A stretch of DNA of 64,000 nucleotides from Pseudomonadota bacterium (GCA_018668255.1 JABISZ010000010.1:48724-112723); one strand, 5' to 3'; positions 17,948-58,583 are shown, counted from the first letter of the stretch. Made by a program: numbers and translations. Notes: generated by a model from the letters alone, not told the origin.

Positions 17948-18022
17948 AACACCTATATTTTAATCAAACATGACTTGGTTGAATGGATGCTTATAAAAAA
18001 CACTAATAACTGTTGTGGTTAG

Positions 18023-20203: not shown

Positions 20204-20227
20204 ATTCTATTCTCAAGGAAGACGACA

Positions 20228-20626: not shown

Positions 20627-20634
20627 GGTACTCG

Positions 20635-32277: not shown

Positions 32278-32916
32278 TTAAGTAGAACCTTTACATAAAC
32301 GGGAAAACCCAGCCGATAAAAATGGAACCATGCGTAAATGTATCTCAGATAAATCGGAGCCACGGCAGGTGTCTCCAGAGAGTAAATCTATGCGACCAGT
32401 CTGTGCAAATGTCATAGTCATAGCACCAAGAAGAAAATGAAAACTCCAATAGACATCCTCCGTCTTAGCAACAGGGAACCTCACTCGTACGCGACGGATA
32501 AACTCAATCGCTACCGGATCGAACTCCGCTGACATGATCTCGCTCGTCCATCGGGGTGAGTTTGCAATCTGAGCGACTACACGAGCATAGTCTCTCCAGC
32601 CCTCACCTCCAAATAAACTTCGCCGAAGAAACGGACCAATGAAAGCCTCTATCAAATCTTCGCTTTCTGCTCTATCAGAAAGCGCGTTCAAAGCTTCCAT
32701 CCTCTCGTTGTTGAGGATTACAGAGCGTCGCTGAATAACAGCGCGAAAAAGTCCTAACTTAGAACCAAAATGATAATTTGGCAGAGCCAATTCTACTCCA
32801 GCAAGCTTAGTAATCATCCTCAAAGACACTCCGTCATAACCGCTTTCGGCAAATAGGGCCTCAGCTGAGTCTAAGATGCGCTGAGGCGTTGAAGTTTTGT
32901 CAGTTTTTTTATTCAC
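32278..32916 (-). CDS. TetR/AcrR family transcriptional regulator
   Basis: 212 aa with an N-terminal HTH typical of TetR. It is divergent from hyuA and has a palindromic operator in the intergenic region. Confidence 0.8.
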   Translation of the reverse strand: MNKKTDKTSTPQRILDSAEALFAESGYDGVSLRMITKLAGVELALPNYHFGSKLGLFRAVIQRRSVILNNERMEALNALSDRAESEDLIEAFIGPFLRRSLFGGEGWRDYARVVAQIANSPRWTSEIMSAEFDPVAIEFIRRVRVRFPVAKTEDVYWSFHFLLGAMTMTFAQTGRIDLLSGDTCRGSDLSEIHLRMVPFLSAGFSRLCKGST

Positions 32917-32938
32917 AGGTGGTTGCTCTTTATTTCTA

Positions 32939-32980
32939 ATTTACGCTATATTTGAACACATGTTCAAATATAGCGTAAAT
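32939..32980. promoter_or_regulatory. Palindromic operator with 20-bp arms and a 2-nt spacer (candidate TetR binding site)
   Basis: ATTTACGCTATATTTGAACA-CA-TGTTCAAATATAGCGTAAAT, checked base by base, is a perfect inverted repeat. It lies between the divergent TetR gene and the TTG start of hyuA (33024). Confidence 0.75.
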
Positions 32981-33023
32981 ACATAATATCCATAGTAGGT
33001 ATCTTTTTAACAGGGGAATAGCG

Positions 33024-35129
33024 TTGAGCTCTTATATTTGCGGTCTAGATATAGGCGGAACTTTTACAGATTGCGTGCTCATAGACGAACATGGCGATCT
33101 TACAATCGCAAAATCACCTTCCACACCATCCGATTTTGCAGTTGGTGTGTTGAATGCTATAGAAAGAGCTGCCGTAAAAATTGGCCTCTCAACCCCGGAT
33201 CTTCTTGACTCAATTAACGTGTTAGCTCACGGAACTACAGTAGGAACTAACACTATAATTCAAAGACGGGGAGCTAAAGTTGGGCTCATTACGACAAAAG
33301 GCCATAACGATGTTATTCATATTATGCGAGGCTCTCGAGGGCTTGCAGGCCAAGATATCAAGTTAATTGTCCACATCCCTGAAAGCAGTAAGCCTAAACC
33401 TCTGATTCCTAAAAGATTGATTCGCGGAGTGTCTGAACGAGTCGACTGCTTTGGAAAAATTGTCGTTGAGTTAAATGAACTAGAAGTAGAAACCGCAATC
33501 AGAGAACTTCAAGATGCGGGATGCGACGCATTAGCCGTCTGCTGTCTCTGGTCTTTTCTCGAACCGAAACATGAGCAAAGGATCAAGGCCATCGCTCATA
33601 AAATAGCTCCAGAAATGTACGTTACGTGCTCTACCGATTTAGCTCCGAAATGGGGTGAGTATGAACGCACTACCGCTGTCGCTCTTAATGCATACATTGG
33701 ACCTATTACTGTCGGGTACATTACTCGCTTAGATAAACAGCTAAAAGAAATGGGTTATAAACCTCCACTGCAGATAACGCATTGTGCTGGAGGGACAATT
33801 ACTGTGCCAAAAGCACAGGAGGCTCCTTTACTAACCCTCGATTCAGGACCTGTATCAGGTGTCACAGGCTCTGTTTTCCTAGGTGGCTTGATGGGCTATC
33901 CCAACGTAATTACCACTGATCTCGGCGGCACCTCCTTTGATGTCGGTGTGATACACAATGGCAGTCCTGTAGTCTCTTATAAAAGCACAGTTAATCAGTA
34001 TGAATATTTTCTACCCAAAGTTGATGTCCAAACATTAGGTACTGGAGGTGGCAGTAAAGTTTGGATAGATCAGACAACAAATTCTCTTCGGGTAGGTCCC
34101 AATAGTGCTGGAGCGGATCCAGGACCGGTATGCTATGGGAAAGGAGGAACTACTCCGACAACGACTGACGCTGATCTTGTTCTAGGCTATCTCGACCCCA
34201 ATAACTTTGCAGCAGGAACGATTAAACTGGACCATAAAGCGGCAACTGAGGCTCTACAAAAGATAGCAGATGAACTCGAAATGACACTTTTTGAGCTTGC
34301 CAGCGGCGTTGCTACTATCGCTGAATTCCAGATGGCAGATCTAATTCGTAAAGTGACCGTACAAAAAGGCCTAGACCCACGAGAATTTGTCGTGTTCGCT
34401 TTTGGTGGCGCAGGTCCTGTACATATGGGCGTCGCTGCACGGGAGCTAGGAGTTGACAAGGTCATAGTCCCACAAGGCGATACTGCGGCGGTCTGGTGCG
34501 CATTTGGAGCAGCCTCCGCAGATATTCTCCATGTTGGAGAACAAGCGAAAATTATTTCATCTCCATTCAACTTAACCGAAATCAATAAGATTCTGAACGG
34601 GTTGTCTTTGAAAGGAAGCCAACAGTTGCAGAGCGATGGTATAGAACAGGCGAAGCATCAGTTTCAATATTCATTGGACATGAGACATCGTGGCCAAATT
34701 AATGAAGTCGAAGTGTTTATAGATAGTGGAATACTCGATGAGAAAGCACTTGAGGCGTTAAGAGAGAAGTTCGTAGCTCGGTACGAGCAACTATACGGCC
34801 GTGGCTCTGCAATGCATGATGCTCGACTAGAAATCGTAACGGCGAGGTGCCGCTCATCTGCTCTATCATTAAAACCTAAACTTAAAGAGTTTTCTTTAAC
34901 ATTAGAGCCTCTCCCCGCGGACGCCAAAACTGGGACCAGGGATATCTATTGGGCTGAAAAACAATCTGTCGAAACAACTCCTATATTTAATGGCTATCTT
35001 TTTAAACCTGGAAACAGCGCTGAAGGGCCTTGCGTTGTCGAAACAGAAACCACGTCGATCGTTGTGCACCCTAAACAGGAAATCAGCATGGACACTTTTA
35101 GAAACTTTGTGATCAACCCCAATACCTGA
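33024..35129 (+). CDS. Hydantoinase/oxoprolinase A-type subunit (HyuA; acetone-carboxylase beta-like)
   Basis: 701 aa, TTG start, N-terminal GLDIGGTFTD ATPase (ASKHA) motif. Confidence 0.85.
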   Translation: MSSYICGLDIGGTFTDCVLIDEHGDLTIAKSPSTPSDFAVGVLNAIERAAVKIGLSTPDLLDSINVLAHGTTVGTNTIIQRRGAKVGLITTKGHNDVIHIMRGSRGLAGQDIKLIVHIPESSKPKPLIPKRLIRGVSERVDCFGKIVVELNELEVETAIRELQDAGCDALAVCCLWSFLEPKHEQRIKAIAHKIAPEMYVTCSTDLAPKWGEYERTTAVALNAYIGPITVGYITRLDKQLKEMGYKPPLQITHCAGGTITVPKAQEAPLLTLDSGPVSGVTGSVFLGGLMGYPNVITTDLGGTSFDVGVIHNGSPVVSYKSTVNQYEYFLPKVDVQTLGTGGGSKVWIDQTTNSLRVGPNSAGADPGPVCYGKGGTTPTTTDADLVLGYLDPNNFAAGTIKLDHKAATEALQKIADELEMTLFELASGVATIAEFQMADLIRKVTVQKGLDPREFVVFAFGGAGPVHMGVAARELGVDKVIVPQGDTAAVWCAFGAASADILHVGEQAKIISSPFNLTEINKILNGLSLKGSQQLQSDGIEQAKHQFQYSLDMRHRGQINEVEVFIDSGILDEKALEALREKFVARYEQLYGRGSAMHDARLEIVTARCRSSALSLKPKLKEFSLTLEPLPADAKTGTRDIYWAEKQSVETTPIFNGYLFKPGNSAEGPCVVETETTSIVVHPKQEISMDTFRNFVINPNT

Positions 35130-35140
35130 GGTTATTTCAG

Positions 35141-37420
35141 ATGCCACGAATAAGCGAAATGACTGACGTAGACTTCAATGGAATTGAAAATCCCTACGTG
35201 CCACCGAAAATCCTGAAAATAGCCTCAAAACTAAGGCTTCATCAAACCTGGGACAAAGAAGTCGACCCGGTAACTTATGAAGTTATCCGTCATAACCTTT
35301 GGCAAATTAATGAAGAGCATGGGGCAACGATACAGCGCCTGTCGGGGTCTCCTGTCGCAATGTACGCTCTCGACTTAAACCCATCCATCCTGACTGAAGA
35401 TGCAGAGTTCGTATACTTTGGCCCTTATATGCAATACATGTCTGGTGTGACAGACACCCAAGTAAAATGGACTCTGGAATACCGAAGTGAGAATCCTGGG
35501 ATAAATGAGGGGGACATGTTTATAGCCAATGATCCGTGGGTAGGGGCGGCTCATCAACAAGATGTGATGCTACTTTGTCCAGTTTTTTGGGAAGGAGAGC
35601 TTTTCTGTTGGATAACAAACTGTCTTCACCAATATGACATCGGAGGGATAACTCCCGGCAGCTTCTGTCCATCTGCGGAATCAGTTTACGAAGAAGGACT
35701 AATGCTTCCACCTCTCAAGATAATTGAAAACTATGAAGTCAGAAAAGATATTGAAGCCGTATATCTAAGGTCGTCCAGAAAGCCTGATTTAGTAGCGTTA
35801 GACTTCCGAGCCCAAATTGCAGGTAACACAACTGCGCGTGATCGAATTTTAGAGCTCATCAAGCGCTATGGAGCAGCCACACTGAAAGGTGTAATGAAAA
35901 GGATTATAGACAACTCGGAAAAATCCTACTTAGATAAAATGTCACGCTTACCTGACGGAGAATGGTCTGATCGAACGTATATAGAGGCTTGCCGCCCGGG
36001 TGACAGACGAACTCATCGGGTCATGTTAGGTCTTCGTAAAGAAGGCAATAAACTTATCTTTAACAATGACGGTTCTGCACCCCAGGAAGGAGCTATGAAT
36101 GCAACTTACTCGGGTTGGCGTGGTTCCGTAATGGTTGCTGTGAATGAATTACTTTGCTGGGATCAGTATTTTGCATGTGGCGGTGCTTTACGGCACATTG
36201 AGTTTGACCCTACGCCGGGAACGCTCAATTGTGCAGACTTCCCATCGTCCGTCTCGACTGCTCCGATACAAGCTATGGAAATTTCACTATATCCCGCCTA
36301 TAACGTCATATCCAAAATGATTTACCCCGATCCGATCATGCGAAAAGACATCATGTGTATCGGCGGCACCAGCCAATGGCCTGCTACTTTATTCAGAGGG
36401 ATCGATCAGTGGGGTGAAAAGTATGGCTATCTACTCATTGATCCTATTGGCGGCGCCATAGGCGCATTTACTATGGCAGATGGTATAAACACTGGTGGAC
36501 AAGCAAGAACGCCTATCTGTCAATTGCCTAATGTGGAACATACGGAACAAAATTTTCCTATCTTGTTCCTTTACCGCAAAGAGCTCAGTGACTCGGGTGG
36601 AGCAGGGAAATACAGAGGCGGACTTTCTGCTGAAAGCTGCTTCATCCCTCATAATACTGAATTCGTTACGCAGGACACTCTTTCTTCTGGCAATGCAATA
36701 CCTACTTCACCTGGCCTGATGGGAGGATACCCATCAACTACTAATGCCTATACATTCGTCAAAGACAGCAATATTTTTGACTGTATGGCGTCGTCACAGA
36801 TGCCAAAGGATACAGACGAATTATTAGGGAATTCCGTAACGTTGCAGCTTCGGGAACAAAACTTCACCCAAGATCCTAAAGATGTATACGCCGTCAGATG
36901 GAGTGGTGGTGGTGGATTCGGTGACCCTTTTGATAGAGCACCAGAGGATATAGAGGATGACTTGGAGTCGCTTGCTATAACCGAAAATTCTGCGGAAACA
37001 CTTTATGGTGCAATCTTAGGCAAAGATGGCCATGTTGATGTTGAAAGGACACGCGAACATAGAGCCAAAATAAGGAAATCTAGAGTTACTGAAATTAAGA
37101 AATCAAATAGGAAGGGTCAGTTGTTATCTGAAAATTCGCACTCAATCAACATTATGCGAGATGACGCCGGCACCTACTGGGCTTGCGCAAAATGTGACTT
37201 CGAATTGGGTGATATCTCAGAGAACTATAAAGAACATTGCGTGACCGAGAATCAAAGCATCGCAGTCTCCAATCCTTTGATTGGCGACGAAGCTAGATTC
37301 ATCGATAACGCGGTTGAATTTAGGCAATTCTATTGCTGCCAGTGCGGCTGCCTTCTAGACAACGAAATCGCAATCGCTGAAGATCCTTTGCTCCACGATT
37401 CAAGGCATCAGCTCAGTTAA
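35141..37420 (+). CDS. Hydantoinase B/oxoprolinase-type subunit (HyuB) fused to a C-terminal Cys4 zinc-ribbon extension
   Basis: 759 aa. The HyuB core ends near GGGGFGDP. The ~110-aa C-terminal tail carries CAKC (residue 682) and CCQCGC (residue 732). Confidence 0.8.
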   Translation: MPRISEMTDVDFNGIENPYVPPKILKIASKLRLHQTWDKEVDPVTYEVIRHNLWQINEEHGATIQRLSGSPVAMYALDLNPSILTEDAEFVYFGPYMQYMSGVTDTQVKWTLEYRSENPGINEGDMFIANDPWVGAAHQQDVMLLCPVFWEGELFCWITNCLHQYDIGGITPGSFCPSAESVYEEGLMLPPLKIIENYEVRKDIEAVYLRSSRKPDLVALDFRAQIAGNTTARDRILELIKRYGAATLKGVMKRIIDNSEKSYLDKMSRLPDGEWSDRTYIEACRPGDRRTHRVMLGLRKEGNKLIFNNDGSAPQEGAMNATYSGWRGSVMVAVNELLCWDQYFACGGALRHIEFDPTPGTLNCADFPSSVSTAPIQAMEISLYPAYNVISKMIYPDPIMRKDIMCIGGTSQWPATLFRGIDQWGEKYGYLLIDPIGGAIGAFTMADGINTGGQARTPICQLPNVEHTEQNFPILFLYRKELSDSGGAGKYRGGLSAESCFIPHNTEFVTQDTLSSGNAIPTSPGLMGGYPSTTNAYTFVKDSNIFDCMASSQMPKDTDELLGNSVTLQLREQNFTQDPKDVYAVRWSGGGGFGDPFDRAPEDIEDDLESLAITENSAETLYGAILGKDGHVDVERTREHRAKIRKSRVTEIKKSNRKGQLLSENSHSINIMRDDAGTYWACAKCDFELGDISENYKEHCVTENQSIAVSNPLIGDEARFIDNAVEFRQFYCCQCGCLLDNEIAIAEDPLLHDSRHQLS

Positions 37421-37422: not shown

Positions 37423-37878
37423 CTAGTGCTTGACGCGATACTCATCGTGGCAGCCTTTGCACATCTTTACAGTAACGCCAAATTGTCTCTTCATGGCCGC
37501 CTTGTCTCCTTCACTAGCAACTATGGCCAACTTCTGAGATGCAGATGCCAAATCACTCATTCTTTTTTGAAAGTCAGGCAAGTTCTCCCATAATTCAGGC
37601 CGAGCTTCAGACTTCGCATCCTTCGTAGACACGTCAAAACCCTCAGCCACCATCGGTGCCAACTGCGCTACTCGGTCTGCCAAAAAAGCAAAGCGCTCTT
37701 TATCAAACGGCACCTTCCCTTGGACCATGGCACCCATAGGCCCGATATTCCAACCTAGCGCCATCAATACACCTTGGCGATAATGAACTGCATCATCGGG
37801 TTTGGGCGCGGCTTGTGCTCCTCCCAAAAAAGCTAACAAGACGCATAGAGTTACAACGACGTTCAATACTTTTTTCAC
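37423..37878 (-). CDS. Cytochrome c' / class II cytochrome c
   Basis: 151 aa with a signal peptide and a single CKGCH heme motif near the C-terminus. Confidence 0.8.
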   Translation of the reverse strand: MKKVLNVVVTLCVLLAFLGGAQAAPKPDDAVHYRQGVLMALGWNIGPMGAMVQGKVPFDKERFAFLADRVAQLAPMVAEGFDVSTKDAKSEARPELWENLPDFQKRMSDLASASQKLAIVASEGDKAAMKRQFGVTVKMCKGCHDEYRVKH

Positions 37879-37889: not shown

Positions 37890-38561
37890 TTATAAGTTGA
37901 ATCTAAAATTAACTATTACACAAATAATCGCAATACTCAGTAACAAAGTTGCAAAAGGTAGGAAAAAACCGTGCCGGATCTTACTTGCATTTTTATCTCT
38001 CAAATATTTATAGCCACTCAGCATCGCACCTACTAAGTGCTCGCGCTTCCAAACTCGATAAAAAAATATCGCCAAAACATGGATGATAATCAAAACAGTC
38101 AAATTATTGAAATTCGTATGGTGTACCCACGTCAGCCAATCGCTGGTGAGCTTAGTCACATTGGCATAAAGCGGCCCTTCATTAAACAAGTCGTCATTGG
38201 CAAACAAGCCCGTAGCAAACTGCACAACCAAAAGTAAAAGAAACGCTATGACTACCCAGCCACCAATAGGGTTGTGCGTTAAGTAATGTTCTGGTTGCCT
38301 GATTTTTAGCTCCAAAATAGCACGAACAACTATTCTTGGACCTCGAATAAACTCGGAGAACTTGGCAGACTGTGATCCCCAAACCCCCCAAAACAGACGA
38401 AAAAAAACAAGAATACCAATGCCGTAACCACAAAACATATGGTATTTCATCAATAGACCGCCTTCTCGCGCTGTCCACCAAGCGGACAGAATCAAAACGA
38501 CTAATAACCAATGAAAGCACCTGATCCATAGGTCCCAGACGTAAACTTTCTCACTGCTCAT
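37890..38561 (-). CDS. Cytochrome b561 family membrane protein
   Basis: 223 aa with 4 TM segments carrying conserved His pairs. Operonic with cytochrome c'. Confidence 0.75.
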   Translation of the reverse strand: MSSEKVYVWDLWIRCFHWLLVVLILSAWWTAREGGLLMKYHMFCGYGIGILVFFRLFWGVWGSQSAKFSEFIRGPRIVVRAILELKIRQPEHYLTHNPIGGWVVIAFLLLLVVQFATGLFANDDLFNEGPLYANVTKLTSDWLTWVHHTNFNNLTVLIIIHVLAIFFYRVWKREHLVGAMLSGYKYLRDKNASKIRHGFFLPFATLLLSIAIICVIVNFRFNL

Positions 38562-38738
38562 TTGAAACCTCTGGCTTTTTCAGTATGAAAAGCATAATTA
38601 ATGTGGCTATGTGCTGCAAATCAAGCTGGCTATATTGAACCATACGAAGCTGCGAAATGTTTTTCTTATTCTTCGTAAAAGTGCTATAAAAAGAATCAAG
38701 CAATCAGAAAACCAATCTCGCATCTAAAAAGAACATTC

Positions 38739-40262
38739 TTGGGGACAATAGTGAAAATCAAAAGACCTACTAGTGAGCAAATTGACTTAATCGCTGAGCA
38801 ATTCGGACTAAATCTTGAATTGGATGATATTGAGTCATTCAAGGCGCTAATGGAGGGGCCAATAGCTTCTTACGAACGGCTAGATGAGCTTTGCGAACCG
38901 AAGCCAGAAGTCAAATATCCTAGAAACCCGGGCTATCGACCTAACGCTGATGAAAATCCGAACAACGCATGGTATTACAAAACATTAATAAAGGGCGCGG
39001 CTCACGGTAAGCTCAGTGGAAAAACCATTGCTATAAAAGACAACGTCTGTGTAGCTGGAGTTCCGATGATGAATGGCTGTTCAGTACTCGAAGGGTATAT
39101 TCCAGATATAGATGCGACAGTGGTAACAAGGATCTTAGATGCGGGGGGTGAAATAGCAGGGAAGTCTGTATGCGAAAACTTATGTTTTTCCGGAGGAAGT
39201 CACACTACTGCCGCGGGACCGGTGACTAACCCTCATAATCCGGAATACACTACCGGTGGTTCTTCAAGCGGAAGTGCAGCGCTGGTTGCATCTGGTGGCG
39301 TTGACATGGCTATTGGCGGAGATCAAGGCGGTTCAATACGTATGCCAGCTAGCTGGTGTGGGGTGTATGGCTTAAAACCTACGCATGGGCTAGTGCCTTA
39401 TACGGGCGCATTTCCGATTGAGATAACCCTTGACCATTTAGGGCCCATAACTAACAACGTAACGGACTGTGCTCTGCTACTCGAAGTTATTGCTGGGGAC
39501 GATGGAATGGATCCGCGACAACGTAATTTAAAAGTAGACAAATATACGGAAGCACTTGTCACTGATATACATGAACTCAAAATTGGCGTTGTGTCTGAAG
39601 GTTTCAATTGGGAAGGTCAATCCGAACAAGATGTGGATACAAACGTGCGTGCTGCGGCTAGTCAACTAGAAAAGCTTGGAGCTCACGTTGAGGAAGTGTC
39701 TATCCCTATGCATAAAGATGGGATCCACATCTGGAATGCAATCGCTATTGAAGGTGCCAATTCCTTGATGATAAAAGGCAATAGCATGGGAACGAATTGG
39801 AAGGGCTATTACAACACTGGGTTGCTCGATTCATTTGCGAGAGGTCGTATCACTAGAGCTGACGATCTGTCAGAAACTACCAAACTGGTAATGTTAATGG
39901 GCCAGTATATGGATGAGCAGTACCATGGTCGCTATTATGCTAAGGCGCAAAATCTTGCCACTGCTCTCAAAGCAGCGTACGACTCAGCTTTTGAAAAATA
40001 CGACCTACTATTGATGCCTACTCAACCAATGAAAGCGACAAAAATACCTGAAAAATCTTGTTCCAGAGAAGATTATGTCGCTCGCGCTTTGGAAATGGTA
40101 AATAATACAGCTCCTTTTGACGTCACCGGACACCCGGCCATAACTATTCCAGTAGGCAAGTCAAAGGGACTCCCTGTAGGTATGATGCTTATCGGGAAAA
40201 GCTTTGATGAGAGTACAATACTAAGAGCAGCTTATACATACGAACAAGCGACAGTAATATAA
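38739..40262 (+). CDS. Amidase (amidase signature family)
   Basis: 507 aa with the [14 protein letters not shown] amidase signature. It is directly upstream of nitrile hydratase. Start is TTG at 38739 or GTG at 38751. Confidence 0.85.
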
Positions 40263-40276
40263 AAGGACTAAATGAT

Positions 40277-40915
40277 ATGAGCGATCATGACCATAATCAC
40301 GACCACGCTAATAGTCGACCATTGACCGATGTAGAGCTAAGGGTCAAAGCGTTGGAACAAGTTCTCACGGAAAAAGGCCTGGTAGATCCTTCGGCTGTCG
40401 ATGCACTCATAGAAACTTATGAGACTAAAGTCGGCCCCCATAACGGCGCTCAGGTAGTGGCTCGAGCGTGGACTGATCCAGAATATAAAAAAAGACTGCT
40501 GATAAATGGGACTGAAGCTATCGCAGAGTTGGGTTATTCGGGTATACAAGGTGAAGATATGGTCGTCGTTGAAAATACTTCAAACATCCATAATGTCTTG
40601 GTCTGCACCTTATGCTCCTGTTATCCATGGCCAACCTTAGGCTTACCTCCGGTCTGGTATAAATCAGCTCCATATCGGTCTCGGGTTGTCAGTCAGCCTC
40701 GCGAGGTTTTAAAAGAGTTTGGCGTAGAGTTAGATAAAAACACAGAGGTCCGAGTATGGGATAGTACAGCTGAACTGCGTTACATGGTTTTACCGGAGCG
40801 TCCTCAAGGAACAGAGCTATTGAGTGAAAACGAACTCTCTTCCCTAGTCACTAGAGACTCGATGATAGGGGTAGAGGTGCTTAAAACAGCCGAATCTCAA
40901 GGGGTATCAGAATGA
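40277..40915 (+). CDS. Nitrile hydratase alpha subunit (cobalt-type)
   Basis: 212 aa with the [10 protein letters not shown] metal-binding motif. The Thr/Tyr variant is characteristic of Co-type NHase. Confidence 0.9.
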
Positions 40916-41571
40916 ATGGCGCACATGACCTAGGTGGCATGCATGGCTTCGGGAACGTCAATCCTGAACAGAATGAACCTGTTTTTCATGAAGAGTGGGA
41001 AAAACGGGTCCTAGGCCTATTTGTTCCCGTCTCTGCCGCGGGACCATTTTGTGTTGACGAGTTTCGAGCACGTATTGAAAGAATGGGGGCAACAAACTAC
41101 CTCTCAACTAGTTATTACGAGCATTGGTTACATGCGTTTGAGACGCTCGCTGTTGAGAAAGGTGTTGTAACAAAGGAAGAGTTGAAAGCTGGAAAATCTT
41201 TCACACCCCGAGGAGAGTCTATGCCACCAGTCTTAGCCAAAGATGTACCTTACATTTCGTCTCATGGCTCTAGTGCCAGAATAGACAAGGCGATTACGCC
41301 AAAATTCAAAGCCGGCAATCTAGTCATGGTGAACAACAATCACCCAGAACATCATACGCGCTGTCCGCGATATGCAAGAGACAAACTAGGTTCTATTGAG
41401 AAAGATAATGGAGTCTTTGTTTTCCCCGATACGGCTGCCCATGGCCAAGGAGACAGCCCCCAGCATTGCTATAGCGTTCGATTCGATGCTCAAGAGTTGT
41501 GGGGAAGCGAAGCCTCCGAGAAAGATTCTGTATACATAGATCTATGGGATGATTACCTTACTTTAGCCTAG
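40912..41571 (+). CDS. Nitrile hydratase beta subunit
   Basis: 219 aa with the [15 protein letters not shown]-terminus. The start overlaps the alpha-subunit stop. Confidence 0.9.
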
Positions 41572-41623
41572 AGGCCTGATTAGAAATTTCAAACCCACCC
41601 CAACATATAAGTGTAAGCGTACT

Positions 41624-41983
41624 ATGAAAAAATCACCCTCAGAACTTGTCGCCCTAGTTGATGCCCCTCTTGACGAAAATAATGAGGTGATCTTCGCCAA
41701 CCCTTGGGAGGCAAAAGCTTTTGCTTTAGTGGTCCAAATGCATCAAGAAAATCGGTATACCTGGAAAGAATGGGCAAATCAACTTAGTCACGAAATCAAA
41801 GAATCAAATACTCTCAATGAAAAAGAGGAAGACTATTACCTTCTCTGGCTCAAAGCTGCCGAGGAACTCGTGGTAACAAAAGGTTTGTGCGCAAAGGATG
41901 AACTATCTTCAAGAAAAGAATCATTACTGCATACTCAAGAAGCACTGAAAGAAACAGCTGACCATCACCACTCTACCGGATAA
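41624..41983 (+). CDS. Nitrile hydratase accessory (activator) protein, beta-subunit-like
   Basis: 119 aa with similarity to the N-terminal region of NHase beta (PWEAKAFALVVQMHQ). Its position matches accessory proteins of Co-type NHase clusters. Confidence 0.7.
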   Translation: MKKSPSELVALVDAPLDENNEVIFANPWEAKAFALVVQMHQENRYTWKEWANQLSHEIKESNTLNEKEEDYYLLWLKAAEELVVTKGLCAKDELSSRKESLLHTQEALKETADHHHSTG

Positions 41984-42173
41984 GAAATCAAGATTTCTGC
42001 TATAGATTGAACATATATTGGGTGTGCAGCTTTACATGTCCGTTCTGTTCCTCTTCCACTGTCGGAGCTGCGGCGCGACCAGCCAAGCAAAGACAATGAT
42101 CTCTCTATTTTTCAGAGCTACTCCATTGGGTAACAGCAGTCGCGAACAGACAGTACTTTGAGCATCTCTAAAT

Positions 42174-43079
42174 TCACGTGTACCTTTTTGAAACAGACTG
42201 GCCTGATTTTTCAGCACAAACAGTGACTAGAAGCACACCGGCTAGAACGACCGCTCCACCAATCAAGACGGAGCTGCTAATAGATTCTCCTAAAAAAATA
42301 AAGGCAAAAAGAACGCCAAAAACAGGAACGAAATTTATATATATGGCGGTTTCTACGACGCCTAGCAATGCAACAGCTTCGTAGTACCATAAAAAAGCCA
42401 AGGCGGAACCAAAAAAACCTAAAAATGAAATTAGCGCCACACTCTCCAGATCCGTAAATATATCAAAAGTAACACTTGGATTATGAAAGAAAAATGGCGT
42501 CATCAATGCAACGCCTATCACTGAGGCGTAAGTAGTGACCAACAGAGGCTTATAGCTCGTCAGCAAGTCTCGTCCAATCACCGAATAGACCGCCCAGGAC
42601 AGTCCCGAGAGCAGAACTAACACTTCACCTTTACCCACCTTGAGATCTAGAAAATCACTGGGGTGACCATTGGTAACAACATACATCGCTCCAAAAAATC
42701 CAAGTAACACTCCCACTACAATGTTCCACCTTGGCAATCTCCGGCTGAGAAAAGAATCAATCACAGTAATTTTAATAGCGATTAAAGCAAGTAAGATAGA
42801 CGCTGTCGATGCAGTCACGGACTCTAAACCTTCATACATCAGACTGTTATGCAACAGAATCCCAGTCAAGCCGAGAAAAAAGAACTTCACCCATAGTTTC
42901 ATAGGTATTGTCAGAAATTCTCCTCTGAATTTCATGAATACCAACAATACGGCTGATGCAATTATAAAACGTCCCCCTACTATGACAATTGGAGCCTCAT
43001 AACTAGCAAGAATGCGCCCTACTGTCGGAGTTGCTCCCCAGAAAGCGGCGGTTAAAAAAAGCTTGAAACGAATTGGCAT
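42174..43079 (-). CDS. DMT superfamily (EamA-like) transporter
   Basis: 301 aa with 10 predicted TM segments in two EamA repeats. Confidence 0.7.
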   Translation of the reverse strand: MPIRFKLFLTAAFWGATPTVGRILASYEAPIVIVGGRFIIASAVLLVFMKFRGEFLTIPMKLWVKFFFLGLTGILLHNSLMYEGLESVTASTASILLALIAIKITVIDSFLSRRLPRWNIVVGVLLGFFGAMYVVTNGHPSDFLDLKVGKGEVLVLLSGLSWAVYSVIGRDLLTSYKPLLVTTYASVIGVALMTPFFFHNPSVTFDIFTDLESVALISFLGFFGSALAFLWYYEAVALLGVVETAIYINFVPVFGVLFAFIFLGESISSSVLIGGAVVLAGVLLVTVCAEKSGQSVSKRYT

Positions 43080-43263
43080 TCGTAAACCTCATCCTTAATA
43101 GTCATATTCCTCTCAAAGGCAAACACGATAACTTAATGCCCTAACACGCTTGAGATGTTAACCTCATGAATAGATCAAAGCGACACCCAATACATCCAGC
43201 CATAAATGGGATTGCATCCTAAAAGAACCGCCGGTTGAAATCGAAACTTAAGGGGATAACTAA

Positions 43264-44067
43264 ATGATAAAAACAGCTTTTGTAACAGGAGGTGCCAGTG
43301 GCATAGGAGCCGCAACGTGTCGTCTATTTGTTGAAAGTGGATACCATGTCTATATTGGAGACATTCAAGAGAATGCTGGAATTGCACTTGCGAAAGAATT
43401 AAAAAATGCAGATTTCATCAACGTTAATATTCGGCGTGAAGAAGAGTTAGCGGCGGCCTTCACCACAATCAAAAAAAAATCTGAGCATTTGGATGTGATG
43501 GTCAACAACGCCGCAATTGTAGGAGTAATGGGTCCAATCACGACCTTGTCAGCAGAGCAGTACGATCTGTCACAAGAAATAATACAACGGAGTGTATTTC
43601 TCGGCACAAAACATGCAGCCAAGATGATGGTGGAAAAGAGCTCAGGCTCAATTATCAACGTAGCTAGCATAGCAGGGATTATGGCTGGCTATTCTCCCCA
43701 TACCTATGCCGCCTGTAAGGCCGCGGTAATACAGTTCACGAAATCAGTCGCTATTGAACTTGCCGAAGAAAATATTCGTGTGAATGCAGTTTGTCCAGGT
43801 GCGATCGCTACACCGATCCACACCGGAACAAACAGCGAAGTTTGGAAAGAAAGGATTAAAACTGTTAAACAAGCATCCACAGATGAACAGCCAATCCCTA
43901 GGATGGGAGAGCCGGAAGAGATTGCTGAAGCGATACTTTGGCTAGCCTCTGAAAAATCTAGTTATGTCACCGGCCATGCATTAGCAGTCGACGGCGGTGC
44001 CACCTCCGGAAAAATATGGCGCCATCAGCCTGATTTTTTAAGACAAATGCACCCGGCTAGGAGTTAG
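43264..44067 (+). CDS. SDR-family NAD(P)-dependent oxidoreductase
   Basis: 267 aa with TGGASGIG and a YAACK catalytic motif. Confidence 0.8.
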   Translation: MIKTAFVTGGASGIGAATCRLFVESGYHVYIGDIQENAGIALAKELKNADFINVNIRREEELAAAFTTIKKKSEHLDVMVNNAAIVGVMGPITTLSAEQYDLSQEIIQRSVFLGTKHAAKMMVEKSSGSIINVASIAGIMAGYSPHTYAACKAAVIQFTKSVAIELAEENIRVNAVCPGAIATPIHTGTNSEVWKERIKTVKQASTDEQPIPRMGEPEEIAEAILWLASEKSSYVTGHALAVDGGATSGKIWRHQPDFLRQMHPARS

Positions 44068-44071
44068 GACA

Positions 44072-44917
44072 ATGGTACGCTTTGGGATTTGCGTGTTACC
44101 TACGGATCTAATTCCTCCAGCAGTCGAGATAGCTCAAACAGTCGAGTCAAAAGGGCTAGATATGCTGTTTTTTGCCGAAAACAGTCACGTTCCTGTAGTA
44201 CATCGCAAGAATTCGTACCATCGACCAGAGATGGTTCAACCATTTGCCAGGATGCATGATTCAATAACTGCGCTAGCAGCTTGTGCCGCGGTTACCACTC
44301 GCATTCAGCTAGGCACGGGAGTCTGTCTTTTAACCGAGCGAGACCCGATCATAACCGCAAAATCTATAGCTACTCTAGATCACATTTCACAAGGCAGGGT
44401 AATTTTTGGAATTGCTGGCGGGTGGATCAAAGAAGCAATAGAGAATCATGGTTGCCCGTTCCGAGAAAGATGGGCAGTTGTTAGAGAGCGCGCATTGGCA
44501 ATTCGTGCTCTTTGGCAAACCGATCCAACTGAGTTCCATGGAGATTATGTCGATTTCAAACCGCTAACTATGATGCCAAAACCATTCCAGAAAGGGGGTC
44601 CACCTATTTATATAGGTTCAAATTCTAGCAAAGTTCCTGCAAGAGTGGTCGACTACGCAGACGGCTGGATGCCTATCTATGAAAAATATGAGGGCGATCC
44701 TCTAGTCGATATTAAAGCTGCATGCGAAAAAGCAGGCCGAGACCCATCTGAAATAACCACATTATTATTTGGAGCACCTAGGGATCAGCTTATACTTCAA
44801 GATTATGCAACACGAGGTTGCGCAGGCTTTATTTTCTTGATCCCACCTGAGCAAAGTGGAAACTTAATACCTATTTTAGACGAGATCAAAAAACTGCGAG
44901 ACGCCATTAATAAATGA
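44072..44917 (+). CDS. Luciferase-like monooxygenase (LLM) family oxidoreductase, ~280-aa subclass
   Basis: 281 aa with a TIM-barrel LLM signature. It is 4 nt downstream of the SDR gene. Confidence 0.7.
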   Translation: MVRFGICVLPTDLIPPAVEIAQTVESKGLDMLFFAENSHVPVVHRKNSYHRPEMVQPFARMHDSITALAACAAVTTRIQLGTGVCLLTERDPIITAKSIATLDHISQGRVIFGIAGGWIKEAIENHGCPFRERWAVVRERALAIRALWQTDPTEFHGDYVDFKPLTMMPKPFQKGGPPIYIGSNSSKVPARVVDYADGWMPIYEKYEGDPLVDIKAACEKAGRDPSEITTLLFGAPRDQLILQDYATRGCAGFIFLIPPEQSGNLIPILDEIKKLRDAINK

Positions 44918-44928
44918 AATAAGCCTCT

Positions 44929-45426
44929 CTATTGTTCTGCTGTGTCACTAAGCCAAGACCGGATACCATCTATCCCATTAAATGCCCAAGAATGGGCACG
45001 ATTCCAATTCATCACAATCATGGTAGGAGTGCCTTTGAAAAGTGGGATAGAGCGATACTGAGGATACTTCTCTCTAAGCCTATCAACTGCCTCACACCAG
45101 TCACCGTGAGAGCTCGTGCACACCCCTGCCCTCACATCCAACCGCAACCACCAGAGTTTGGACCAGTCTTTCTGATAAGAGTCCAAAAGAAGCGTTGACT
45201 CTGGGGTTTTACCGACATGCCTCAAACGTTCAAGATCCGCCGTTTTCTTTGGCTTTCCATCAATGGGTGAAAAAATCTGATTCCCGACCCTCGAAAAGAC
45301 AATCGGCATAGCCTCAGCTCTCCCATCGGATCGCGTGACCGCAAATCGAGCAACAGGCATTTTATCTAGTAACTGGTGAACGAGGCTATCAGATAAATTC
45401 ATATATCTCATCTCTTTAGAAAGCAT
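44929..45426 (-). CDS. Pyridoxamine 5'-phosphate oxidase (PPOX)-like flavin-binding family protein
   Basis: 165 aa with a split-barrel FMN-binding fold pattern. Weak assignment. Confidence 0.45.
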   Translation of the reverse strand: MLSKEMRYMNLSDSLVHQLLDKMPVARFAVTRSDGRAEAMPIVFSRVGNQIFSPIDGKPKKTADLERLRHVGKTPESTLLLDSYQKDWSKLWWLRLDVRAGVCTSSHGDWCEAVDRLREKYPQYRSIPLFKGTPTMIVMNWNRAHSWAFNGIDGIRSWLSDTAEQ

Positions 45427-45565: not shown

Positions 45566-46945
45566 ATGATCCAACAATTTCGTCGCTTTGGTGCAGGACT
45601 GTCAGATGTAACAGAACGATGGGTACCCGACGCTTGGGTGATCTCGATGATGCTTACAGCAGTGGCAATTTTACTTTGTATCTTTGGAGCAGGTGCAACC
45701 GTAGAAGAAACTGTCCTTGCTTGGGGAGATGGAGTCTGGAGCCTCTTGGGACTGGCAATGCAGTTCACCATCGCTATGGTAGCGGCGCATGCATGTGCCG
45801 CATCGCCCCCTATTTACCGTTTTTTCAATTGGCTAGCATCGCTTCCAAACCCATCCAAACCCGTTCAAGCTCTTGTTCTGGCTGGTATGTTTTCTCTTGT
45901 AATGGGTTACCTTAACTGGGCCGTATGCCTGGTTTCTTGTGCGCTATTTACCCCATTTATACTCCGTCGTAATCCGAACGTAGATGTGCGACTCCTTATA
46001 TGCGCCTCCTATTTAGGGATAGGTACAGTTTGGCATGGTGGCCTATCCGGCTCTGCTCCTTTGATTTTAGCTACGCCGGGTAACCCGCTAATAAATCCAT
46101 CAAGCGGAGCACCTATTGTAGATCGGTTGTACCCTGTGACTGAAACCCTCTACAACAATTTCAATCTTGTTTTTATCTGCATCCTTGGCGCAGTAGCTCT
46201 AGCTACCACTTGCTTACTGCATCCTCGTTCAGGCGCTCGCACGCTTAGTGCAGAAGAAATAGAAAAAATCCTACCCACTCCACCTAAAGAAGATGGTCCT
46301 CCTAGGACTCCTGCTGAATACATCGATCAATTCAGAGGTTGGGTATTACTTGCGGTGGTCTTATTAGCCTATCCACTCGGTTATTCGATAGTGACTAAAG
46401 GTTTCGGCACTAGCTGGACTATAAACGCATATAACATCACATTCCTAGTCATCGCATTATTATTGCACGGTAGAGCACCATCTTTTCTGCGAGCTTGTCG
46501 CAACGGTGTCGACAGCGCCTGGGGTATTGTGGTGCAGTTCCCTTTCTACGCCGGCATTTTTGGGTTAATGCAGAACACTGATCTTGGTGAGTGGCTTGGA
46601 AGCTTTTTCTCGAACATCGCCACAACAGCAACTTATCCATGGGTCGTCTACGTATACTCTGGACTCATGAATTTGTTTGTCCCTTCTGCTGGCTCTAAAT
46701 GGATGATTGAAGCCCCTTTCCTGATACCGGCAGGCGAGCTTCTTAATGTTTCTGTTGTCACAACTACGCTCGCTTATGCCTACGGGGATTCTGTTACTAA
46801 TCTCATACAACCCTTTTTTGCTATTCCAATATTAGCGGTAACTCGGATGCGATTTGGTGACGTTGTAGGGTATACATTTTTGGTTGCTGTTGTGTGCTTC
46901 ATGGTAACTTCCGTAGCCATGTTTATGATCCCTCCACAGTGGTAG
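45566..46945 (+). CDS. Short-chain fatty acid transporter (AtoE family)
   Basis: 459 aa polytopic membrane protein with an AtoE-like N-terminus (FRRFGAGLSDVTERWVPDAWV). Confidence 0.65.
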   Translation: MIQQFRRFGAGLSDVTERWVPDAWVISMMLTAVAILLCIFGAGATVEETVLAWGDGVWSLLGLAMQFTIAMVAAHACAASPPIYRFFNWLASLPNPSKPVQALVLAGMFSLVMGYLNWAVCLVSCALFTPFILRRNPNVDVRLLICASYLGIGTVWHGGLSGSAPLILATPGNPLINPSSGAPIVDRLYPVTETLYNNFNLVFICILGAVALATTCLLHPRSGARTLSAEEIEKILPTPPKEDGPPRTPAEYIDQFRGWVLLAVVLLAYPLGYSIVTKGFGTSWTINAYNITFLVIALLLHGRAPSFLRACRNGVDSAWGIVVQFPFYAGIFGLMQNTDLGEWLGSFFSNIATTATYPWVVYVYSGLMNLFVPSAGSKWMIEAPFLIPAGELLNVSVVTTTLAYAYGDSVTNLIQPFFAIPILAVTRMRFGDVVGYTFLVAVVCFMVTSVAMFMIPPQW

Positions 46946-52328: not shown

Positions 52329-54782
52329 CTAACTCCTTGTCCGTACGCTTTTCGGATCGTACATTGGTGTCAGTGAAGCCTTAGCCTTATACAGTCTATC
52401 AGCTTGCTCGATTTCAAACACTCCCGTCGACAAGAATTCACTGGTTATTCCCTCTGAATTTTGCAGGTAGCCCATAGAAGCGCACGCTCCTAAAGTGTGC
52501 GCATATGCCGAGGAAGCCGTGTATCCGATCCTCTCCCCATCGCGTAAGATTGATTCATTGTGAGAAAGTACCGGCCCATTATCTTCTAGTAAGAACTGTA
52601 CCAGTCGCTTATTAACTGGCCCTCTCTCACGCTGGGCGAGCAAGGCTTCTCGTCCAATGAAGCCTGCAGGTTTATCCCAGTCACATGTGAACGACAGCCC
52701 GCACTCAATTAACGTATCTCTCGGGCTCATATCGTGAGCCCACTCGCGATACCCTTTTTCGATTCGCAAAGAATTAAGAGTATGATAACCACAGTGTTTG
52801 AGTCCATACTGAGCTCCTTCTTCAACTATCTTGTCATACACCATGAGAGCCATTTCGGTTGGAATATAAAGTTCCCAACCAAGTTCTCCGGTATATGAAA
52901 TCCTCACAGCCATAGCACTCTGGTAGCCAATTTCTATAGATTGCATTGTTCCAAACGGAAAGCTACTGGAGGAGAAGTCAGTAGATGAAATACTTGCCAT
53001 TAATGACCGTGCTTGAGGCCCTTGTATGTTGAGCATCGCGTATGAACTGGTTATATCAGTGATTATACAATGTGCATCATCTGGTATGTGCTCATGTATC
53101 CATGCTTTCACGTGGGTCGCAGTAAATGCCGCTGTTACAATCAGATATTTATCTTTTTCTATTCTAGTGACTGTTAAATCAGCTTCAACTCCGCCCGTTT
53201 GATTTAAGAACTGAGTGTAAACGACTGTTCCAGCTTTGACTGACATACTCGCCGTCGCGATAAAATTTGGTGTCTTTTCAGCATCTTTTCCTTGAACTAA
53301 TATTTTCTGGAAAGAAGATTGGTCAAAGATTCCCACAGCAGTTCGTACAGCTTGATGCTCTGCGGCATTATTATTAAACCAATTTTGTTTTCCAAAATCG
53401 TACTTATACTCCGCTTCCTCTCCAGGTAGCGCGTACCAATTGGGTCGCTCCCATCCAGCAGACTCACCAAAACAAGCTCCGACTTTCTCTAAACGTTCGT
53501 GTAAAACTGACTTTTTCATATTGCGCCCAGTTTCCCATTGCCGGTTAGGCCAATGCATTTTATAGGCGATACCGAGAGACTCGCTAGTGCGATCGACTAT
53601 AAATGCTTTGTTGTTTTGGCAAGGTTGCATCCGTCGGACATCGACATCCCACATATCCATTGGCTGAACACCGTCGTTGATCCATTGAGCCATAACATTA
53701 CCAGCCCCACCACCTGACAATATTCCTAGGGAATTAAATCCACAGGCTATAAATAGCTGTTTAATGTAAGGAGCCTTTCCCATGAGGTAGTTATGATCAG
53801 GAGTAAATGACTCGGGGCCACAAAAAAATTGTCGAATTCCCGTATCGTTAAGAATAGGAAGGCGCTGCATCCCTGTTTCAATATGAGGCAGCATACGATC
53901 CCAGTCAGGGTCAATTTCATCAAAGCAAAAATTTTCAGGGATCCCCTCAGTGGCCCAAGGTGATGCAACTGGTTCAAAAAAACCCAACAAAATTTTTCCC
54001 GCTTCCTCTCTCGCGTAGATGCCTCGACCAGGATCTCTCAATATAGGAAGTTGATTGTGTACTTCTTTTATCGGTTCTGAAATCAAGTAATAGTGTTCCG
54101 CGGCTTGCAAAGGTATATCTATTCCATTTGTTAACCCGAATTCTCTTCCCCACATACCTGGGCACATTACAACGACTTTTGCTCTCATTTCGCCTTGGTC
54201 TGTAATTACACCAACGGCTCGACCATTTTCTATGATGAGTTCTTTAACTAGTGTGTCTTCAAAAATACGTACACCTTGTTGTCTTGCGCCTTTTGCGAGT
54301 GCCTGAGCGACATCAGCAGGATTTACTCGACCATCGTTCGGAAAGTAAAACCCTGCGAGCAAATCATCTACATAAGTTAACGGAAATAGATCTTGGACTT
54401 GTTGAGGGGAAATTTCTTCACTTTCTACACCGAATGTTCGCGCCAAAGCACATCCACGCCGCATTTCTTCAACCTTGTCTTTAGTCATAGCTAGCTGTAT
54501 CGAACCACATTTAATGAATCCAGTAGCTTGCCCCGTCTCTTCTTCTAGATCTTCATATAATTTTAAAGAATATTGAGCAAGACGTGTTTGACTCTCCGTG
54601 TCACGAAGTGTCGTAACAAGTCCAGCCGCATGCCAAGTTGTACCAGAGCTTACTTTTTTTCTTTCTAGAACAACTACGTCATCCCACCCAAGCTTAGCTA
54701 AGTGATAGGCAGTTGAACACCCTATAACACCTCCTCCAATTACAATCGCACGGGCGTTTTTAGGTAGGGTTTTCTCACTCAT
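52329..54782 (-). CDS. Dimethylglycine/sarcosine dehydrogenase family flavoprotein (DAO domain plus GcvT-like aminomethyltransferase domains)
   Basis: 817 aa. N-terminal GGGVIGCSTAYHLAKLG FAD motif and a C-terminal GcvT fold. Confidence 0.8.
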   Translation of the reverse strand: MSEKTLPKNARAIVIGGGVIGCSTAYHLAKLGWDDVVVLERKKVSSGTTWHAAGLVTTLRDTESQTRLAQYSLKLYEDLEEETGQATGFIKCGSIQLAMTKDKVEEMRRGCALARTFGVESEEISPQQVQDLFPLTYVDDLLAGFYFPNDGRVNPADVAQALAKGARQQGVRIFEDTLVKELIIENGRAVGVITDQGEMRAKVVVMCPGMWGREFGLTNGIDIPLQAAEHYYLISEPIKEVHNQLPILRDPGRGIYAREEAGKILLGFFEPVASPWATEGIPENFCFDEIDPDWDRMLPHIETGMQRLPILNDTGIRQFFCGPESFTPDHNYLMGKAPYIKQLFIACGFNSLGILSGGGAGNVMAQWINDGVQPMDMWDVDVRRMQPCQNNKAFIVDRTSESLGIAYKMHWPNRQWETGRNMKKSVLHERLEKVGACFGESAGWERPNWYALPGEEAEYKYDFGKQNWFNNNAAEHQAVRTAVGIFDQSSFQKILVQGKDAEKTPNFIATASMSVKAGTVVYTQFLNQTGGVEADLTVTRIEKDKYLIVTAAFTATHVKAWIHEHIPDDAHCIITDITSSYAMLNIQGPQARSLMASISSTDFSSSSFPFGTMQSIEIGYQSAMAVRISYTGELGWELYIPTEMALMVYDKIVEEGAQYGLKHCGYHTLNSLRIEKGYREWAHDMSPRDTLIECGLSFTCDWDKPAGFIGREALLAQRERGPVNKRLVQFLLEDNGPVLSHNESILRDGERIGYTASSAYAHTLGACASMGYLQNSEGITSEFLSTGVFEIEQADRLYKAKASLTPMYDPKSVRTRS

Positions 54783-54966
54783 AATTAGATAGTCTCCAGC
54801 TAGTATTCACATGGCTATGGATAAATTTATTTGCTGTGGAAATTTATCATTTTTAAAAGCATTTAGACAGGTTTATCTTGACCCTGTCCTGGCATATTGT
54901 AATCCCCATCTATTAATACATACCTGTTAAACTTGTATGGGCTGACTATGACATTAAGGAATAAGC

Positions 54967-56121: not shown

Positions 56122-56173
56122 GGAGCAGAAAGTTACATCATTAATAATAAATACTAAAAGCGAGGTAGAAAAA

Positions 56174-56590
56174 ATGAAAGATAAGACAGCAACGGGTTCC
56201 TGCCAGTGTGGAAATATTCGTTATTCACTTCTCGCCCCCAGTCGTGAGTTACATCATTGTCATTGCTCAATGTGTCGAAAATCTCATGCGTCGATGTTTG
56301 GGACCTATGCAACAATAGAAAGAGAGTATTTTGTAGTCGAAGAAGGAAAAGATTTTCTTTCTACTTACTTAACTACTCCTGACGTCCATCGCCACTTCTG
56401 CTCGGGCTGCGGATCACACATTTTCATAGATGTTGACTGGGAACCTGATTTAGTTTGGTTTACACCAGGCACCATTGACACGGGCCATCCAAATCATCCT
56501 CCGGAAACCGAGAGGCACATTTGGGTAGATTCTAAAAATCCTCTTTATGAGATCACTGGCGACCTTCCAAAGTACAGGGAATTTGATTAG
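56174..56590 (+). CDS. GFA family protein (glutathione-dependent formaldehyde-activating enzyme/CENP-V fold)
   Basis: 138 aa with zinc-binding motifs CQCGNIRY and CHCSMCRK. Confidence 0.8.
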   Translation: MKDKTATGSCQCGNIRYSLLAPSRELHHCHCSMCRKSHASMFGTYATIEREYFVVEEGKDFLSTYLTTPDVHRHFCSGCGSHIFIDVDWEPDLVWFTPGTIDTGHPNHPPETERHIWVDSKNPLYEITGDLPKYREFD

Positions 56591-58311: not shown

Positions 58312-58353
58312 TATCTCTCCTTAGGTACTAAGTGCTTTATTGTGCTTAACCGC

Positions 58354-58566: not shown

Positions 58567-58583
58567 GTGTTAGCCCTTATATA

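Follow-up and report, generated by a model that had tools for sequence, protein, structure and literature searches.

A 64,000-nucleotide (nt) stretch of Pseudomonadota DNA (GCA_018668255.1, JABISZ010000010.1:48724-112723; hereafter the window) very probably carries, at 38751-41983, a single operon for two-step nitrile hydrolysis by a cobalt-type (Co-type) nitrile hydratase (NHase; EC 4.2.1.84) and an amidase, assisted by a subunit-swapping activator. The window is read as one strand, and all features are counted from its first letter. In the open reading frame (ORF) list, the operon consists of four co-directional genes on the plus strand, encoding the amidase, NHase's alpha and beta subunits and an accessory protein in this order. 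The gene content, the family membership of the products, the determinants of the Co-type, the intact catalytic residues and the conserved architecture are all direct observations. The operon and its borders contain the following features.

38751-40262, plus strand: amidase-signature amidase, 503 amino acids (the longest ORF, 38739-40262, gives 507 amino acids from TTG)
40277-40915, plus strand: NHase alpha subunit, predicted Co-type, 212 amino acids
40601-40630, plus strand: metal claw codons, alpha residues 109-118, by direct translation
40912-40915, plus strand: overlap of alpha stop and beta start, ATGA, read from the sequence
40912-41571, plus strand: NHase beta subunit, 219 amino acids
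41624-41983, plus strand: NHase accessory (activator) protein, 119 amino acids, a homologue of the beta N-terminal domain
38562-38750, plus strand: intergenic region 5′ of the amidase gene, presumed promoter region, 189 nt, divergent from the cytochrome b561 gene
42019-42042, plus strand: weak terminator-like hairpin 3′ of the accessory gene, 8 pairs with 3 G-C and a T-rich tail

Metal type is the property on which the three lines of evidence from motif, overall similarity and activator type converge, and together they support the prediction that this NHase is a Co-type enzyme. At equivalog level, alpha is a member of the NHase alpha family (TIGR01323, 306.5 bits with a cut-off of 249.85), and it matches PF02979 with an E value of 1.2e-88. 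Its metal claw reads VCTLCSCY, with Cys110, Cys113, Ser114 and Cys115, and the three claw cysteines are the only cysteines in the protein. In comparative-genomics papers, CTLCSCY is the Co-type motif and CSLCSCT the iron-type (Fe-type) motif (PMC2667541, PMC2770081). An earlier note on this DNA, made from the sequence alone, had named a Co-type claw here, and it is indeed CTLCSCY, not CSLCSCT, that the alpha gene encodes.

Comparison of the subunits with characterized NHases gave the same answer, as the best solved relatives are all Co-type and the Fe-type enzymes score lower. Alpha best matches a crystallized Co-type NHase, that of Pseudomonas putida NRRL-18668 (3QXE_A), with 316 bits and 69.4% identity across 196 aligned residues. 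Other Co-type structures, of the Pseudonocardia and Bacillus types, score ~260 bits, so that the Co-type range is 316-253 bits, whereas the Fe-type structures range from 212 to 168 bits, and the best of them, 2AHJ, lies ~100 bits below 3QXE. Grouping of alpha with Fe-type enzymes, or loss of claw cysteines, was what the earlier note had said would refute its assignment; alpha did not group in that way, and the three cysteines are intact.

The beta subunit behaves likewise. It scores 255.5 bits with TIGR03888 (cut-off 152.2), carries both the N-terminal and the C-terminal domain in a single protein (PF21006 and PF02211), and is 52.6% identical to 3QXE_B (233 bits), with Co-type structures ranking above Fe-type ones as for alpha. 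Conserved in it are Arg52, Glu56, Tyr68, Tyr69, His71, Trp72, Tyr215 and an HTRxPRY block. Among these, Arg52, Tyr68, Trp72 and the HTRxPRY arginines support the active site in published structures. The catalytic residues are intact in alpha and beta, as they are in the amidase.

The third line is the activator. Fe-type NHases go with a large COG0523 GTPase of ~45 kDa as activator, Nha3/P44K (PMC2770081), and Co-type NHases use a small, beta-like one (PMC3511329, PMC7193024). No CobW/COG0523 protein is encoded in the 64-kb window, according to a Pfam survey of ORFs of at least 130 amino acids, and the accessory protein of the operon is small and beta-like (TIGR03889).

An Fe-type or metal-promiscuous NHase in place of a cobalt enzyme is therefore a very remote prospect. 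The Fe-type enzymes (Rhodococcus N-771, 2AHJ; Comamonas testosteroni Ni1, 4FM4) share with the window enzyme the alpha/beta fold, the Cys-X-Leu-Cys-Ser-Cys claw and the reaction. The subunits of the two types are homologous, alpha still matches Fe-type 2AHJ with an E value of 6e-62, and either type has been reported to take the other metal, with low activity (PMC7193024). However, the Fe-type enzymes differ in having the CSLCSCT claw and a large G3E GTPase activator (Nha3/P44K/P47K), and they score 212 (2AHJ) and 171 bits (4FM4) against 316; for alpha, each Co-type structure stands 50-100 bits above each Fe-type one, and the survey of the window found no COG0523/Nha3-type GTPase.

That the genes encode a related claw enzyme with another substrate, namely thiocyanate hydrolase, or that the alpha-like gene is a precursor of a ribosomally synthesized and post-translationally modified peptide (RiPP) of the NHLP type, has a probability close to negligible: alpha does match thiocyanate hydrolase gamma (TIGR03887, 179.5 bits), the thiocyanate hydrolase structure 2DD4_C and an NHLP leader peptide model (TIGR03793, 62 bits), but the TIGR03887 score is far under the cut-off of 291.45 while TIGR01323 is passed, thiocyanate hydrolase is the weakest match to alpha among solved enzymes (the one weaker match listed is an NHLP leader peptide) and splits the beta equivalent over two genes where the window has a single 219-residue beta with both domains, and alpha is a full-length protein with an intact claw rather than a leader peptide. 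The Fe-type, thiocyanate hydrolase and NHLP-precursor readings were rejected on motif, curated cut-offs and subunit structure.

The amidase gene upstream encodes an amidase-signature enzyme with GGSSSGSAA, as the earlier note had reported; the motif occupies residues 169-177 in the 503-residue numbering. The protein matches PF01425 (336 bits, E = 4e-100) and, well above the cut-off of 545, the PRK07235 subfamily model NF005565 (820.9 bits). Its closest solved relative is a Rhodococcus amidase, 3A1K (E = 2e-156, residues 9-503), with which it shares Lys96, Ser171 and Ser195 in register and under the same numbering; the same catalytic residues make it like 3A1K/3A1I as a known system. The Ser-cisSer-Lys triad numbering is that of the published amidase structure. 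3A1K/3A1I is the amidase of strain N-771, encoded in the NHase gene cluster of that strain, and as an NHase neighbor it has the same genomic role as the window amidase. Its partner there is an Fe-type NHase, whereas the window amidase partners a predicted Co-type enzyme. Judged by its family, the window amidase would hydrolyze the amide made by NHase to carboxylate and ammonia.

The accessory protein passes the TIGR03889 nitrile_acc model (78 bits, cut-off 46) and PF21006 NHase_beta_N (45.6 bits, cut-off 21.5), and is 25-31% identical to beta N-terminal halves. With annotated accessory proteins it shares 38.6% identity (Rhodococcus sp. M8, E = 2e-20) and 36.9% identity (Roseomonas plasmid p1318-4). 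In an alignment with 74 homologues, it keeps all of the near-invariant residues F24, P27, W28, F33, W47, W50, Y71, Y72, W75 and E80. Self-subunit swapping was first established in the Rhodococcus rhodochrous J1-type system (PMC3511329). In P. putida NRRL-18668, where the gene order is alpha-beta-activator, the activator P14K forms alpha(P14K)2; cobalt enters alpha only within this complex, and holo-alpha is then exchanged into apo-NHase (PMC3511329). Because TIGR03889 is passed, the accessory homology holds, and the closest enzyme with the same gene order swaps subunits, the accessory protein is regarded by analogy as a putative cobalt metallochaperone and self-subunit-swapping chaperone. The suggestion in the earlier note, that a 119-residue beta-like protein downstream is consistent with such a chaperone, agrees with these family matches and with the 37-39% identity to annotated accessory proteins.

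The proposed course is as follows. First, the ATGA overlap would couple translation of alpha and beta. Second, the accessory protein, by analogy with P14K, NhlE and NhhG, would bind free alpha as alpha(acc)2 and enable cobalt insertion, after which holo-alpha would be exchanged for the apo-alpha of apo-NHase. Third, the mature enzyme, of the alpha2beta2 type, would hydrate R-CN to R-CONH2 at a non-corrin Co(III) center held by the alpha claw C110-T-L-C113-S114-C115. Fourth, the amidase triad Lys96/cis-Ser171/Ser195 would turn the amide into carboxylic acid and ammonia. In characterized NHases, oxidation turns two of the claw cysteines into sulfinic and sulfenic acid. For the window proteins, the cobalt content, the oxidized cysteines, the swapping of subunits, the substrates and the physiological role are all predicted from homology. 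The predicted role would be use of nitriles as a source of nitrogen and/or carbon, or detoxification.

Several points weigh against this account. The metal type is a prediction from motif, similarity and activator type, and the metal content and activity are likewise predicted. The Co-type motif was found in 80 of 80 related loci, but this count is biased and carries no weight, since the pattern CSCYPWPT was among those used to collect the relatives. The sequence does not reveal a substrate. The homology to P14K is indirect, running through TIGR03889 and the Rhodococcus and Roseomonas accessory proteins. Finally, the C-terminus of the accessory protein is rich in acidic residues and His (4 K/R, 6 D/E and 4 His in the last 30 residues, ending in DHHHSTG) and may differ from the C-terminal tail of P14K, which a review describes as positively charged (PMC7193024).

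The amidase most likely starts at GTG 38751 rather than at TTG 38739. The GTG is favored because a GGGGA Shine-Dalgarno sequence precedes it (~38741-38745), because the alignment to the NCBIfam subfamily profile begins at that residue, because independent gene callers give 503 amino acids on four other contigs, and because the exact 503-residue protein is an NCBI entry ('amidase'). The four genes, which the earlier note had put at 38739-41983, are thus all present as placed, except that the start of the amidase moves 12 nt inward. The alpha ATG, with an AAGGA Shine-Dalgarno sequence ~9 nt upstream, comes 14 nt after the amidase stop codon TAA (40260-40262). The overlap of the alpha and beta genes claimed in that note is present as a 4-bp ATGA, which is a signature of translational coupling and would couple the two genes here; an AAGGGG Shine-Dalgarno sequence lies ~8 nt 5′ of the beta ATG, within the alpha gene. 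The gap between the beta and accessory genes is 52 nt, and the accessory ATG is without an obvious Shine-Dalgarno sequence, which makes a weak ribosome-binding site.

A possible extended -10 element, TGcTATAAA, was read directly from the sequence at 38682-38690. A consensus promoter scan returned no promoter-like site in the intergenic region 5′ of the amidase, where the promoter is thus assigned as a possibility. At the other end, the convergent EamA gene ends at 42174, and the hairpin at 42019-42042 is only suggestive of a terminator because such sites are no commoner in the region than in shuffled sequence. For promoters and terminators together, the scan gave site counts not above those of shuffled sequence.

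Conservation of the locus was examined in a scan with one genome per species (GTDB), which gave at least 307 relatives; the best 80 were kept for locus counts, with loci numbered below with an L. The order alpha-beta-accessory occurs in 72 of the 80 loci; the others are truncated contigs, a locus with an insertion and one with the order alpha-accessory-beta. A close amidase, with an identity of at least 45%, stands directly upstream on the same strand in 20 of the 80; in 5 it is upstream but divergent, and in 8 it lies at another place in the locus. Among the alpha/beta junctions, the -4 overlap of the ATGA type is commoner than any other single class (14 loci), in statistics that are only indicative, as automated ORF starts over-extend in high-GC (guanine plus cytosine) relatives. 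The window operon is a textbook case of the arrangement reviewed as gene type A. Moreover, on four contigs from independent assemblies the proteins of the locus are 98-100% identical (tblastn), an argument that the gene set is functional.

Among the known systems, that of P. putida NRRL-18668 (5B) with P14K (3QXE; PMC3511329) is nearest. It shares with the window operon the order alpha-beta-small activator, the same 17-residue claw region, a His-rich alpha N-terminus (THDHHHD against DHDHNHDH) and beta Glu56, His71 and Tyr215. It differs in that the window host is an uncultured marine gammaproteobacterium with 43-45% GC, and in that the window has an upstream amidase within the operon; while the P14K tail is reported as positively charged, the accessory C-terminus of the window is rich in His and acidic residues. 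Rhodococcus rhodochrous J1 and Rhodococcus sp. M8, with accessory proteins of the NhlE/NhhG type, have the same Co-type claw as the window enzyme. In sp. M8, which was isolated from nitrile-contaminated soil, the accessory protein is again small and beta-like, and alpha is 56% identical to that of the window. The Rhodococcus order, however, is beta-alpha-accessory, and the genes are plasmid-borne, flanked by insertion sequences and, in M8, placed beside an ArsR/SmtB metalloregulator, whereas the window operon is chromosomal and is without an adjacent regulator or mobile element. The Roseomonas plasmid p1318-4 has the alpha-beta-accessory order and an annotated 4-bp alpha/beta overlap, as in the window.

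The alpha and accessory proteins both have His-rich tails. The alpha N-terminus is rich in His and Asp (DHDHNHDH, 40283-40306), and the accessory C-terminus is His-rich (DHHHS, 41959-41973). Similar alpha tails occur in P. putida (the above-mentioned THDHHHD) and Roseomonas (HDHHGHDHDHDH), and at least 4 His are found within the first 25 alpha residues in 18 of the 80 relatives. These alpha and accessory tails may bind metal.

Cobalt supply was looked for near the operon. No Ni/Co transporter family was found in ORFs of at least 130 amino acids over the whole window, very small proteins not being screened. The earlier note had remarked on a missing cobalt transporter; none is present in the window, but this is no peculiarity, as only 4 of the 80 loci have a CbiM-like gene nearby. 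CobW-type genes are nearby in 6 of the loci and a heme aldoxime dehydratase in 3. No Rfam family, the cobalt- and B12-responsive riboswitches included, reached the gathering threshold in the 64 kb.

Two kinds of candidate metal genes were seen in the relatives. In L044, L053, L068 and L082, a gene 126-485 nt after the accessory gene encodes a CbiM-like membrane protein (PF01891, 44.9 bits) whose N-terminus has an MHI motif, apparently without CbiN, CbiQ or CbiO in the cluster. This protein, which the window lacks, may be a component devoted to cobalt uptake. In several loci with a Co-type claw, the small accessory gene is directly followed by one for a CobW/COG0523 GTPase (PF02492 and PF07683), ~40-60 nt downstream in L061, L064, L072 and L073; the CobW gene is found also in L058 and L044. 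COG0523 activators of NHase (Nha3) have been reported to cluster exclusively with Fe-type NHases (PMC2770081). The CobW genes at Co-type loci may belong to another COG0523 subfamily, one that serves Co-type enzymes.

The genes upstream of the operon are listed below, those nearest to it first.

37890-38561, minus strand: cytochrome b561, neighbor
37423-37878, minus strand: cytochrome c′, neighbor
33024-37420, plus strand: HyuA/HyuB pair 1, neighbor
32278-32916, divergent from HyuA: TetR regulator, the nearest regulator to the operon

The earlier note had described the operon as lying beside a cytochrome b561/c′ pair and HyuAB, and both are present as it stated. It had gone on to regard the cluster as a scavenging island, and that remark is not supported. 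We consider it unlikely that the operon, HyuAB and the cytochrome pair belong to one catabolic island gained by horizontal transfer. Some observations do lean that way. In about five independent lineages (L005, L006-L009, L013, L022 and L057), HyuAB-like pairs, ATP-dependent hydrolases of the lactam or amide type, are encoded less than 8 kb from NHase genes. In L057, a Myxococcota metagenome-assembled genome (MAG; OZ245015.1, 1-3566), HyuB and HyuA are 77% and 62% identical to pair 1 of the window and lie ~3-4 kb from the amidase and NHase genes of that locus. For a comparison across phyla this identity is high, and it suggests that HyuAB moved horizontally, possibly along with the NHase module; alpha proteins more than 65% identical to that of the window are spread over several phyla.

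On the other hand, the GC content is flat (0.44-0.45 in the region, 0.41-0.47 in the window), ARAGORN found no tRNA genes in the 64 kb, and the Pfam survey of window ORFs of at least 130 amino acids found no integrase, transposase or recombinase. The flanks hold core genes (spoT, recG, gmk, rph and acn), and the core genes of the window as a whole are tldD/pmbA, mnmA, aconitase (acn), nhaB, rph, yicC, gmk, spoT, recG and ubiA, next to assorted catabolic genes. Only within the species group of the window (L001-L005; the layout of L005 is that of the window) does the divergent cytochrome b561/c′ pair adjoin the operon, and the HyuAB pairs near NHase fall into at least three subfamilies with 24-77% identity and varied orientations. 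A loose functional or thematic link between HyuAB and NHase is possible, and the four-gene module has probably moved horizontally over evolutionary time.

Other features of the surroundings were observed as well. Two HyuA/HyuB-type (hydantoinase/oxoprolinase/acetone-carboxylase) pairs are in the window, at 32278-37420 including TetR, and at 56626-60650. In pair 1, HyuB carries a fused domain that resembles acetone-carboxylase gamma (PF08882), and the best NCBIfam matches of this pair, to caprolactamase and acetophenone carboxylase subunits, are far under their cut-offs. Downstream of the operon, a block at 42174-45426 contains genes for an EamA transporter (minus strand), a short-chain dehydrogenase (plus), a luciferase-like monooxygenase (plus) and a 165-residue PPOX-like protein (minus). 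The last scores 102.8 bits with TIGR03668 (F420-dependent PPOX; cut-off 119), and for a gammaproteobacterium an enzyme of the F420 type would be unusual. The same block also follows the NHase operon in L017 (a UBA981 MAG, 50-73% identity) and partly in L008, which could reflect a functional link or merely clade synteny.

Further downstream, 3.6 kb from the operon, a short-chain fatty acid transporter (PF02667, AtoE-like; 45566-46945) is encoded, which is conserved in L005. It could move carboxylates from nitrile and amide hydrolysis, and nothing directly links it to the operon. A group at 52329-56590, comprising a dimethylglycine/sarcosine-dehydrogenase-like protein (DAO and GCV_T, 817 amino acids), an acyl-CoA dehydrogenase-like protein and a glutathione-dependent formaldehyde-activating enzyme, suggests the methylated-amine catabolism typical of marine heterotrophs. 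Finally, gmk-(gap)-spoT-...-recG at 16940-22725 is the usual conserved housekeeping arrangement.

The host was described in the earlier note as a marine gammaproteobacterium, which is upheld at class level by NCBI labels of MAGs and by Tara Oceans sources. All four exact proteins are in NCBI, from Gammaproteobacteria or Pseudomonadota MAGs, under the names 'amidase', 'nitrile hydratase subunit alpha', 'nitrile hydratase subunit beta' and 'nitrile hydratase accessory protein'. The closest species representative, with the same layout as the window and 96% identity in alpha, is labeled as an uncultured Gammaproteobacteria MAG. Close variants carry Tara Oceans identifiers, and it is on these source labels that the marine origin rests; the sample accessions matched no paper in the literature. 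The assembly collection contains the exact alpha protein in 135 blocks. When the literature was searched for a description of such an NHase from a marine gammaproteobacterium, nothing specific came up.

What such a host would do with the operon admits a further alternative. Instead of nitrogen scavenging, the role could be conversion of a specific nitrile of the phytoplankton environment, such as indole-3-acetonitrile to indole-3-acetamide and on to the auxin indole-3-acetic acid (IAA), or detoxification. We hold this improbable. In its favor, the host is an abundant uncultured marine bacterium, by the above-mentioned 135 blocks and the Tara catalogues; NHase with amidase is known as an IAA route in plant-associated bacteria; and accessory homologues are found on Sulfitobacter, Rhizobium and Agrobacterium plasmids. 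However, the amidase scores only 229 bits with the indoleacetamide hydrolase model NF005688 (cut-off 532), no tryptophan- or aldoxime-pathway gene is nearby, and the substrate range is not readable from sequence. Among window ORFs of at least 130 amino acids, no aldoxime dehydratase, nitrilase or dedicated nitrile regulator was found.

A broader ecological version of this idea is that the operon gives an abundant pelagic gammaproteobacterium an ecologically significant need for non-corrin cobalt and acts on a specific phytoplankton-derived nitrile (for example, indole-3-acetonitrile on the way to IAA), or on a cyanogenic or algal one, perhaps together with HyuAB and with the His tails capturing metal. 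We think this highly unlikely, the case for it being the abundance in marine assemblies and the loose, recurrent proximity of HyuAB. If it were true, cobalt would be required in seawater, where cobalt is scarce, without a dedicated importer nearby.

The two-step operon with a predicted Co-type NHase is thus an ordinary system of a known type, already annotated publicly under the same names. The operon type, the Co/Fe motif rule, the beta-like activator and the swapping mechanism are all established already, and the operon adds little to them beyond its correct annotation. As a predicted Co-type NHase that shares 69% identity with the P. putida enzyme and comes from a marine bacterium of cold or temperate habitat, it might be considered as a biocatalyst. 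The mild interest that it holds is ecological, lying in a cobalt enzyme in an abundant pelagic bacterium, in the His-rich tails and in the natural nitrile substrate. An abundant member of the bacterioplankton with a predicted non-corrin cobalt enzyme would add modestly to what is known of cobalt demand and nitrile turnover in the sea.

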